From contig JBFHFS010000008.1 in assembly GCA_041583495.1 (NCBI GenBank), positions 36,421-100,420 on the forward strand: a stretch of 64,000 nucleotides of DNA, written 5' to 3'. Below are positions 37,909 to 39,160 of this stretch, in pieces (position 1 is the stretch's first letter; every line of letters starts with the position of its first letter). The notes below the pieces were generated by a model. It was not told the origin of the DNA and did no database searches. It was given only the letters and a program-made list of their open reading frames with translations. The stretch comes from Marinilabiliaceae bacterium. Lineage in GTDB: Bacteria > Bacteroidota > Bacteroidia > Bacteroidales > Marinilabiliaceae. The translations under genes and the position numbers were made by a program.

Positions 37909-38736
37909 TTATTGTTTCTTGACAAACGTAACCATTGTATTATTTCCAGCCCTCTGACTTAGGTTAAGAAAATAAACCCCTGCCATTAAATCATGAGTAT
38001 CAATAGATGAATCTCGTTTCAATACCCCTTTTTTAACACAGACCCCTTGTGTATTGTAAATCATAAAATCAAGGTCTCCTGTTGGCTCCGGTTGTATAAG
38101 ATACAATTGATTAACCACCGGATTGGGGTAGACTTTCACCGTGTTTAGACTTCTTTCCCGGATTTTGGTTACAGCACGGGTCGATATCCTAAAGGTGTCT
38201 GACGAAAAGAAGGTGTCGTAACTGAAATTTGCATAAACAACAATATCTGTCAGACCCGGCACTAGCGGGGTTCCACTAAAGGTTTTGCTCTGGTAATCAA
38301 ATGTTAACCAATCCGGAAGCGCTGTGCTGTCACTTTTGAGAGCCAGTATTGAATCGGGTTGCTGACTGAAAAGGGAGTCCGGAATAGTATAAGAATAAGA
38401 TTCATTTGTTGAGATAGTGGTGTCCGGGAGGTTGTAATCAAAGTAAGACCTGACCCGAAGAACCAGGTAAAGGGTCGATTCTTTTTGAATATTATAATCA
38501 CTGAGGGTTCGTCCATCCTCCAATTGCTTTCCTGCATATATTAATCGTTGCTGATCAGGGGGGATTCCTTCTTTATCCTGAATTTTGGCCTTCACATTTT
38601 CAATGGTGTCATTGGGCTCAACATCAAGGGTTATTGTTTTCCCGGTTAATGTCTTAACAAAGATTTGCATTGGATAAAGAGTCGTGGAAAAGAGCACTAA
38701 AATTAAAATGGAAAGGATCCTTTTTCTTGGATTCAT
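37909..38736 (-). CDS. Secreted eukaryotic-type ubiquitin domain / Ig-like (He_PIG-type) domain / T9SS C-terminal sorting domain fusion protein
   Basis: Signal peptide [22 protein letters not shown]. Next comes [74 protein letters not shown], then [18 protein letters not shown], then [14 protein letters not shown]...GVYFLNL...FVKKQ. The ORF-track start at 38766 is 10 codons upstream. Confidence 0.9.
37912..38145 (-). other. Type IX secretion system C-terminal sorting domain (Por_Secre_tail type) within the fusion CDS
   Basis: The last 78 or so aa read [76 protein letters not shown]. This matches the 'YPNP...l.i......i.i.d..G..v.......ID.s.L..G.Y.......k..K' pattern. Confidence 0.8.
38443..38670 (-). 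other. Ubiquitin domain (76 codons) within the fusion CDS
   Basis: 69/76 positions are identical to canonical eukaryotic ubiquitin by my manual alignment. The differences are E16D, S20N, F45Y, H68Y, L73V, G75S and G76Y. Confidence 0.9.
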
Positions 38737-39160
38737 GAGATAGTGGGTTTGGTTTTGTGGGCGCAATATCAGCGATAAAATTAATTATATTTTTATTTAT
38801 GGATGGGTTTTATGTGGGTTTTAAGGTAAAATACCAATAAAGAAGAAGCATGATTCGGTGTTTTTAATTCGTAGCCGGGTAGTATGTTAACCGGCATTTT
38901 AATGGCAAGAATCTTGCTTCAGAATAAAAATATGAAAGATTTTGAAGCGACAGAATGCTATTTCAGTTCAGAAAACCATGGGATTTATAGAAAACAGGGT
39001 CTTGTTGGTCTCAAACCCTGAAAGAATAGGCTGCATCTTAATGCCGACTAAAGGAGTGATAAACAATTACCCTGAGAATAATAAGATCTTCAGGCTAATA
39101 GAACCGGACCTTTTAAGTGCCGGGAAATAAACCAGTGAAAGTTAAGTTAAAAAATGGCTC

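Follow-up and report, generated by a model that had tools for sequence, protein, structure and literature searches.

We describe a gene found in a 64,000-nucleotide stretch of DNA (positions 36,421 to 100,420 of contig JBFHFS010000008.1, assembly GCA_041583495.1, filed as Marinilabiliaceae bacterium), below called the window. The gene lies on the minus strand and encodes a nearly unchanged eukaryotic ubiquitin placed between a signal peptide and an immunoglobulin (Ig)-like domain, which is followed by a C-terminal type IX secretion system (T9SS) sorting domain (CTD). With moderate confidence, we read its product as a non-conjugatable ubiquitin that a surface stalk would hold out at its tip and that would act by non-covalent recognition.

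The minus-strand open reading frame (ORF) spans 37909..38766. The ATG at 38736 is its likely start, giving a protein of 275 amino acids, because homology to L084, a metagenomic contig that carries an ortholog, begins just 20 nt upstream of this codon and the protein of the ortholog, P0122, shares this initial Met. In a blastn comparison of L084 with the window, the TTG further upstream (38766) falls outside the conserved stretch. The original prediction, made from the sequence without database searches, had proposed this start and a four-part in-frame architecture; the ortholog supports the former, and searches with hidden Markov models bear out the latter. The models for ubiquitin, He_PIG and the sorting domain all exceeded their curated cut-offs: Pfam PF00240 matched residues 25-95 (model positions 1-71 of 72, 106.4 bits against a cut-off of 25.4), NCBIfam TIGR04183 matched residues 202-274 of 275 (model positions 1-72 of 72, 44.6 bits against 23), Pfam PF18962 (Por_Secre_tail) matched residues 202-266 (39.7 bits against 27), and the score of PF05345 is given in Table 1. 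The predicted junctions at 38671 and 38442 coincide with domain boundaries. The He_PIG stretch also matches the dystroglycan N-terminal Ig-like domain 5llk in a search of the PDB (E 4e-5); its precomputed match in P0122 is weak. This domain presumably serves as a stalk. The signal peptide, with a hydrophobic core of about 14 residues, was judged present and is kept in P0122, where it reads MNLRKRIIAIVLLVVISTTLYP and has the same position and character; its boundary at residue 22 is putative.

The ubiquitin core is identical to human ubiquitin at 69 of 76 positions (91%), exactly as counted by hand in the original prediction, and the seven substitutions are those implied there: E16D, S20N, F45Y, H68Y, L73V, G75S and G76Y. 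The pair Asp16 and Asn20 is also found in eukaryote-type polyubiquitin units (P0054, P0073, P0088). All seven lysines (K6, K11, K27, K29, K33, K48, K63) are present, Leu8, Ile44 and Val70 are retained, and there is no cysteine in the core (residues 23-98). The tail reads LRVRSY in place of LRLRGG, and the chain runs on for 177 more residues. The free C-terminal LRLRGG required for E1 activation and conjugation is thus missing from the protein. Because Gly75-Gly76 is replaced by Ser-Tyr and the chain continues, this ubiquitin can be neither E1-activated nor conjugated nor trimmed off by deubiquitinases.

A search of 5.8 billion protein clusters was run with the non-ubiquitin part as query, the full-length query being swamped by eukaryotic polyubiquitins. 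It revealed one further relative, P0122 (274 amino acids), from a second species in an unrelated Joint Genome Institute (JGI) metagenome, 3300048628, which has a signal peptide and the three domains in the same order. In the whole collection ubiquitin, He_PIG and T9SS CTD occur together only in the window protein and P0122, and a metagenome scan with a He_PIG and CTD alignment gave no more orthologs. We found no description of a ubiquitin-T9SS architecture in the literature, in agreement with the original prediction. The ratio of non-synonymous to synonymous substitution rates (dN/dS) was calculated codon by codon for each part of the two genes (Table 1). In the ubiquitin core 18 synonymous and 4 non-synonymous differences were counted (dS 0.49), and the amino-acid differences between the two ubiquitins fall at positions 45, 68 and 74. 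Ubiquitin is the most constrained part of the protein and is under strong purifying selection in bacteria.

Table 1. Features of the ubiquitin gene, with amino-acid identity and dN/dS (Nei-Gojobori) between the window gene and its ortholog P0122/L084
Feature	Coordinates	Strand	Residues	Remarks	Amino-acid identity	dN/dS
Upstream intergenic region	38737..39216	(-)		L084 homology ends 20 nt upstream of the ATG (blastn)
Signal peptide	38671..38736	(-)	1-22	Read from sequence: basic n-region, then hydrophobic core	68%	0.67
Ubiquitin core	38443..38670	(-)	23-98	PF00240, E 6e-31	96%	0.047
He_PIG Ig-like domain (dystroglycan/cadherin-like)	38185..38430	(-)	103-184	PF05345, 36.3 bits against cut-off 24	74%	0.147
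Linker	38134..38184	(-)	185-201	Joins Ig-like to sorting domain; covered by no domain model
Type A T9SS CTD	37912..38133	(-)	202-275	VKVYPNP...GVYFLNL...VTFVKKQ; TIGR04183 and PF18962	73%	0.369
Stop codon	37909-37911	(-)

An identical 275-residue protein is encoded on contigs from three sequencing runs (SRR29257458, SRR29257459 and SRR29257461), one of these contigs being 77.5 kb long. The flanks are alike in all three assemblies, with an aminotransferase gene upstream and a gene for a flavodoxin-like flavin mononucleotide (FMN) reductase downstream. The protein is also recorded on a 128-kb contig in the protein collection. L084 has the downstream flavodoxin-like gene too. At the nucleotide level, the ubiquitin genes of L084 and the window are 81.9% identical, their flavodoxin-like genes 86.1% and their abhydrolase genes 81.1%. 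Because the architecture is shared despite this divergence, both junctions are present in two diverged genomes. The GyrB protein of the window (46113-48068) is 86-87% identical to that of Marinilabilia, 84-85% to those of Anaerophaga and Thermophagus and 83% to that of Alkaliflexus, and the host is, on sequence grounds, an uncultured, marine-type member of Marinilabiliaceae, Bacteroidota.

These data bear on the possibility, named in the original prediction, that an assembly chimera or eukaryotic contamination has been fused to a bacterial secreted-protein gene. Polyubiquitin fragments do contaminate prokaryotic assemblies: in the genome scan described below, 16 of the 80 best loci hold polyubiquitin units arrayed head to tail, mostly on contigs shorter than 1.2 kb, and represent eukaryotic contamination. 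The window gene, by contrast, is found in three independent assemblies and on long contigs, its ortholog from a different metagenome keeps the same junctions at 82% nucleotide identity, synonymous divergence with amino-acid conservation extends over both junctions, and the GC content at third codon positions (GC3) of the ubiquitin part (0.395) fits that of the remainder of the gene (0.35-0.43). A chimera or contamination is effectively refuted. The proposal of a near-eukaryotic, eukaryote-derived ubiquitin in a genuine bacterial gene thus stands, resting on the three assemblies, the ortholog, the dN/dS values and GyrB.

The 76-residue core was then compared with one genome each of 185,579 bacterial and archaeal species. 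At least 403 stretches matched near-eukaryotic ubiquitin. Reading frames were inspected around the best 80 of them, which are 84-94% identical to the window ubiquitin and to which all counts for the class refer. A signal peptide ends directly at Met1 of ubiquitin in 47 of the 80 loci, and two further cases were recognized by eye. Of the 47, 34 have Ala immediately ahead of Met1 and just 6 keep GG. Thus, comparable signal-peptide ubiquitin genes exist in dozens of other prokaryotic genomes, and we did not find them described in the literature. The original prediction had cited BfUbb of Bacteroides fragilis as the only precedent, which does not hold for the sequence record; those of the 47 that were checked have other surface anchors behind ubiquitin. 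The gene is located in a chromosome or a long contig of a cultured isolate in Limnohabitans sp. DCL3, four Dyella species, Cohnella sp. OV330, Ruminococcus albus 8, Paracidovorax valerianellae, Methylolobus aquaticus and Marivivens geojensis. The polyubiquitin contaminants were located, in isolate assemblies that serve as species representatives, at L010, L020, L036, L041, L043, L044, L046 and L050, with further ones at L051, L053, L056, L057, L064, L069, L070 and L077.

Domain scans of a sample of the loci revealed the modules downstream of ubiquitin. An autotransporter beta-domain follows it in five proteins, L009, L012 (Limnohabitans), L026 (Luteolibacter), L052 (Marivivens) and L072, so that this form occurs in several Pseudomonadota and in Luteolibacter (Verrucomicrobiota). 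Dockerin is found behind ubiquitin in Ruminococcus, IPTL-CTERM in Rhodoferax and Paracidovorax, short hydrophobic sorting-type tails in L014, L058 and L074, cadherin-like and fn3 domains with three SLH repeats in Cohnella, Big_2 and Flg_new repeats in Coriobacteriaceae, and SdrD_B and DUF11 repeats in a metagenome-assembled genome (MAG) of Methanothrix. In Dyella and Collimonas nothing follows and ubiquitin is free. The autotransporter, dockerin-only and sorting-tail forms carry no passenger besides ubiquitin. Judged by domain order, the common design is a ubiquitin as the N-terminal, outermost module combined with a surface-sorting or anchoring module native to each lineage. The window protein has the same layout, with a signal peptide running to Met1, loss of GG and a C-terminal surface-sorting module, and by this order of parts it is the Bacteroidota/T9SS version of the wider design.

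In the 49 ubiquitins linked to a signal peptide, conservation reaches at least 90% for the I44, F4, TEK-box and D58 surfaces and for the seven lysines. Tail residues 73-76 decay, with Gly76 kept in 16%. Among loci, GC3 of the ubiquitin genes varies between 0.17 and 0.90, and the nucleotide identity of the window core to any of the 80 loci is at most 79%. These values point to ubiquitin genes that are probably long resident and ameliorated rather than contamination. The donor lineage that the original prediction hoped to find was sought through the nucleotide comparison with the 80 loci, and because the best identity among them is 79%, neither a donor nor a sister lineage can be named; 76 almost invariant residues would not resolve a tree.

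A second T9SS lineage probably exists in Saprospiraceae. On three Saprospiraceae-type contigs (L078, L079 and L085) a signal peptide and ubiquitin are followed by a large cysteine-rich protein that runs off the contig ends. A full-length homologue that lacks ubiquitin, encoded by L086 (3250-8235; 1662 amino acids, 52% identical), has a mature part that starts at the same place and terminates in a TIGR04183 domain (39 bits, cut-off 23). From this comparison we infer that ubiquitin is a module inserted into existing surface proteins, at the point where the signal peptide meets the mature N-terminus. Judging from L086, the Saprospiraceae ubiquitin proteins, whose own C-termini lie beyond the contig ends, are probably T9SS cargo as well. 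The family of large cysteine-rich Saprospiraceae-type surface proteins occurs both with and without an N-terminal ubiquitin.

Several members of the inspected set depart from the common design. In Dyella sp. OK004 and D. koreensis, and likewise in a Collimonas MAG (L007, L082 and L021; ubiquitin at 5001-5228 in each), a free signal-peptide ubiquitin ends in LRLRGG followed by a stop codon; by its sequence, such a secreted ubiquitin would be conjugation-competent if it reached the eukaryotic cytosol. The D. jejuensis counterpart (L034) ends in LRLRGY. Two Methanobacteriota MAGs (L004, 4635-5429, and L005) contain an internal near-eukaryotic ubiquitin about 93% identical to the query. In L004 it stands behind an archaeal type IV pilin N-terminus (PF07790), and the upstream sequence of L005 is similar; the L004 arrangement looks like a pilin-like display of ubiquitin in archaea. 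In Acidimicrobiia (L016, L047 and L068, one of them a complete chromosome, OZ239143.1) ubiquitin without a signal peptide is fused to a conserved C-terminal domain of about 120-155 amino acids, a different and possibly cytoplasmic use.

The window protein resembles type A CTD cargo in having a signal peptide, a full-length TIGR04183 domain at the C-terminal extremity and an Ig-like domain directly before the CTD; it differs from the usual cargo in its passenger, a eukaryotic ubiquitin instead of an enzyme or an adhesin. For type A CTD cargo, shuttling by PorV precedes cleavage by PorU (PMC11205867), and the export steps proposed here follow this known handling. Sec would carry the precursor into the periplasm, where it would fold. 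The T9SS translocon would recognize the CTD and translocate the protein over the outer membrane, and PorV would shuttle it to the PorU attachment complex. A PorU-type sortase would then cut off the CTD, with the linker as the expected cleavage region, and the new C-terminus would be linked to surface lipopolysaccharide, or the protein would be released. With either outcome the N-terminal ubiquitin would be the exposed end, distanced from the cell by the Ig-like stalk. There it could act only by non-covalent binding to a partner that reads its surface, or as a chain acceptor. We take the ubiquitin surface to be the functional element because the core is constrained, the recognition surfaces are retained class-wide, the conjugation tail decays, and ubiquitin is the sole passenger in many of the proteins. 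The most likely partners would be ubiquitin-binding proteins of eukaryotes met by the bacterium, such as grazers or hosts. We hold this idea loosely, because His68 is changed in the lineage and the surface lies outside the cytosolic ubiquitin system.

A number of observations weigh against surface display for recognition. Position 68, part of the I44 patch, is Tyr in the window protein, Gln in the ortholog and His in human ubiquitin, and Phe45 has become Tyr in the window; the classical ubiquitin-binding surface may be drifting or may have been retuned in this lineage. The conservation profile of the class was drawn from the most similar 80 of at least 403 matches and is biased to conserved copies; the dN/dS result is free of this ascertainment bias. 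Export, CTD cleavage and surface anchoring of the window protein are predictions from its domains. The signal peptide lacks a canonical AxA site (the boundary reads TLYP/MQ), and the mature N-terminus is not fixed by the sequence. Both the cell surface and the lumen of a phagosome are topologically separate from the cytosolic ubiquitin machinery, and the partner of the displayed ubiquitin is hypothetical. No T9SS machinery genes were identified within the 64-kb window, over which the presence of the machinery was judged, and a motif scan revealed no other CTD-bearing ORFs there. Finally, an AlphaFold2 model built from the two-sequence alignment (predicted local distance difference test (pLDDT) score 49.6, predicted template modelling (pTM) score 0.34) was too poor and was not used.

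A broader reading is put forward tentatively, as possible. Prokaryotes of many phyla may deliberately coat themselves with authentic eukaryotic ubiquitin, whose surface selection would hold almost constant because ubiquitin receptors of eukaryotic grazers or hosts must read it. The anchors would, on this tentative reading, be lineage-specific: the T9SS in the host of the window gene, and in other prokaryotes autotransporters, dockerins, exosortase-type tails or S-layer anchors. If true, display of ubiquitin would be a general, hitherto unrecognized strategy in prokaryote-eukaryote interactions.

Ubiquitin may instead be a structural accessory, a stable, soluble and protease-resistant N-terminal cap, the specific function residing elsewhere (for example, in a He_PIG adhesin) or being absent. 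Such a role would agree with the addition of ubiquitin ahead of pre-existing large surface proteins (L078, L079 and L085 share the mature N-terminus of ubiquitin-less L086), with the big adhesin- or enzyme-like regions behind ubiquitin in many partner proteins, and with the lack of conservation of His68 in the window lineage. We nevertheless consider it doubtful. Besides the stalk, ubiquitin is the only globular passenger in the window protein, as it is in the autotransporter, dockerin-only, IPTL-CTERM and free forms; its dN/dS is 0.047 against 0.15 in the Ig-like domain; and decay is confined to the conjugation tail, the lysines and the recognition surfaces all being kept. Furthermore, BfUbb and its B. 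ovatus counterpart BoUbb are 61-63% identical to human ubiquitin (PMC3352274, PMC11467351; published figures, not a direct alignment, are used for both throughout), so a secreted bacterial ubiquitin tolerates far more change.

The protein could also be a released antibacterial factor of the BfUbb kind, taken up by related bacteria via a TonB-dependent SusCD-type transporter and poisoning a periplasmic target. BfUbb and BoUbb, the only characterized bacterial ubiquitins, are associated with vesicles, imported by ButCD (SusCD-type) and directed at a periplasmic peptidyl-prolyl isomerase. The likeness to the window protein is considerable: all come from Bacteroidota, carry a eukaryote-derived ubiquitin behind a Sec signal peptide, have lost GG and are non-conjugatable, and the BfUbb gene (PMC6194340), like the window gene, is located in a part of its genome with lower GC. 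Release is conceivable because attachment need not be the fate of every type A CTD cargo protein. On the other hand, BfUbb has a C-terminal cysteine and a disulfide (PMC6194340, PMC11467351) that is reportedly crucial for antagonism (PMC11467351) and that cannot form in the cysteine-free core of the window protein. BfUbb and BoUbb are free proteins of about 76 amino acids; the window ubiquitin is permanently fused to a stalk of about 100 residues and runs on into the sorting domain, its predicted route of export and localization is different, its identity to eukaryotic ubiquitin is 91%, and neither an immunity-like nor a ButCD-like gene adjoins. Thus, of the features of BfUbb the window protein has the signal peptide and the GG-less ubiquitin, and lacks the cysteine, the disulfide and the stand-alone form. 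We regard an antibacterial role as improbable. The original prediction had left the choice between a BfUbb-like effector and mimicry of a host or predator ubiquitin system open; the former is weakened by the missing cysteine and by the stalk and surface-sorting tether, and the latter is favoured. Among nucleotide sequences, that of an entomopoxvirus ubiquitin is closest to the BfUbb gene (PMC3352274, PMC6194340).

A role as conjugatable modifier in a bacterial ubiquitin-like pathway (Bil/Bub/CBASS-type or ThiS/MoaD-type) or in a defence system, suggested by the beta-grasp fold and the existence of such pathways in bacteria, is ruled out by the protein architecture, with its missing free GG end and predicted export, and finds no E1, E2 or JAB gene near the ubiquitin gene, the neighbours being the aminotransferase and the flavodoxin-like reductase, and no match of the ubiquitin protein or its two immediate neighbours to PADLOC defence models.

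Display of a ubiquitin for recognition, the reading that we favour, can be set beside other ubiquitins. Eukaryotic ubiquitin lacks the signal peptide, the SY tail with further domains, Tyr68 and Tyr45 of the window protein, and its context of polyubiquitin or ribosomal-protein fusions is absent from the window gene. Viral ubiquitins (baculovirus v-ubi and that of entomopoxvirus) are likewise captured eukaryotic ubiquitins kept by a non-eukaryotic genome. They work inside eukaryotic cells and mostly keep GG, whereas the window ubiquitin is predicted to be exported and is non-conjugatable. Baculovirus ubiquitin is lipid-anchored on virion membranes.

The searchable literature treats BfUbb and BoUbb as essentially the sole bacterial copies of eukaryotic ubiquitin, diverged, free and antibacterial. 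Full-text searches of it gave no report of a ubiquitin fused to any of the four modules (T9SS domain, autotransporter, dockerin, sorting tail), an absence that is no proof that the class is undescribed. The window gene represents a different use, a nearly unchanged, non-conjugatable and strongly constrained ubiquitin with predicted T9SS export to the tip of a stalk. Since carriers of the class include cultured isolates whose genomes are complete or nearly so (Limnohabitans, Dyella, Cohnella, Ruminococcus albus 8 and Paracidovorax), the question of an extracellular ubiquitin reader is directly testable. If the partners are eukaryotic, this would be molecular mimicry of a new form, with a bearing on resistance to grazing, on symbiosis and on gut or rumen ecology. 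It would also bear on the arguments on anti-ubiquitin autoimmunity previously made for BfUbb. Contamination screening is affected, as similarity filters see these bacterial genes as eukaryotic, and polyubiquitin contaminants need to be separated from genuine bacterial ubiquitin genes.

GC3 of the ubiquitin gene is 0.39, compared to a mean of 0.51 (standard deviation 0.06) for 41 window ORFs. The low value is common to the ubiquitin gene and a 33-36 kb block that is missing at the matching position of L084, which suggests that the two form an accessory region. Between the flavodoxin-like and abhydrolase genes, which adjoin each other in L084, the window contains at 33000-37100 a block of about 5.5 kb with an HTH_20 regulator, a C_GCAxxG protein, a rhodanese, a TauE-type exporter and an unknown secreted protein; GC3 of most of this block is 0.38-0.45. 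The only PADLOC match nearby, to Csa3/CasR-type models on a small ORF at 36226-36624, was attributed to its helix-turn-helix domain.

Upstream of the ubiquitin gene (38737..39216) the TAnnTTTG promoter motif is absent, sigma-70 sites are not above chance, and no terminator signals above chance were found. Searches with Rfam revealed no RNA genes in the window. The sequence TACGTTTG at 37923-37930 (-) fits the Bacteroidota -7 motif TAnnTTTG; it is inside the last codons of the ubiquitin gene and about 145 nt upstream of the start of the flavodoxin-like gene. The motif is not enriched across the window (57 found, 52 expected).

Elsewhere in the window, a tetratricopeptide repeat-rich protein of 1011 amino acids (7982-11017) matches PorW/SprE with 104 bits, below the cut-off of 250 and insufficient for a T9SS call. 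A LacZ-type beta-galactosidase (59673-63557; 1020 bits to NF052611) is extended at its C-terminus by about 125 amino acids, and this extension resembles the C-terminal part of GH101 endo-alpha-N-acetylgalactosaminidases.

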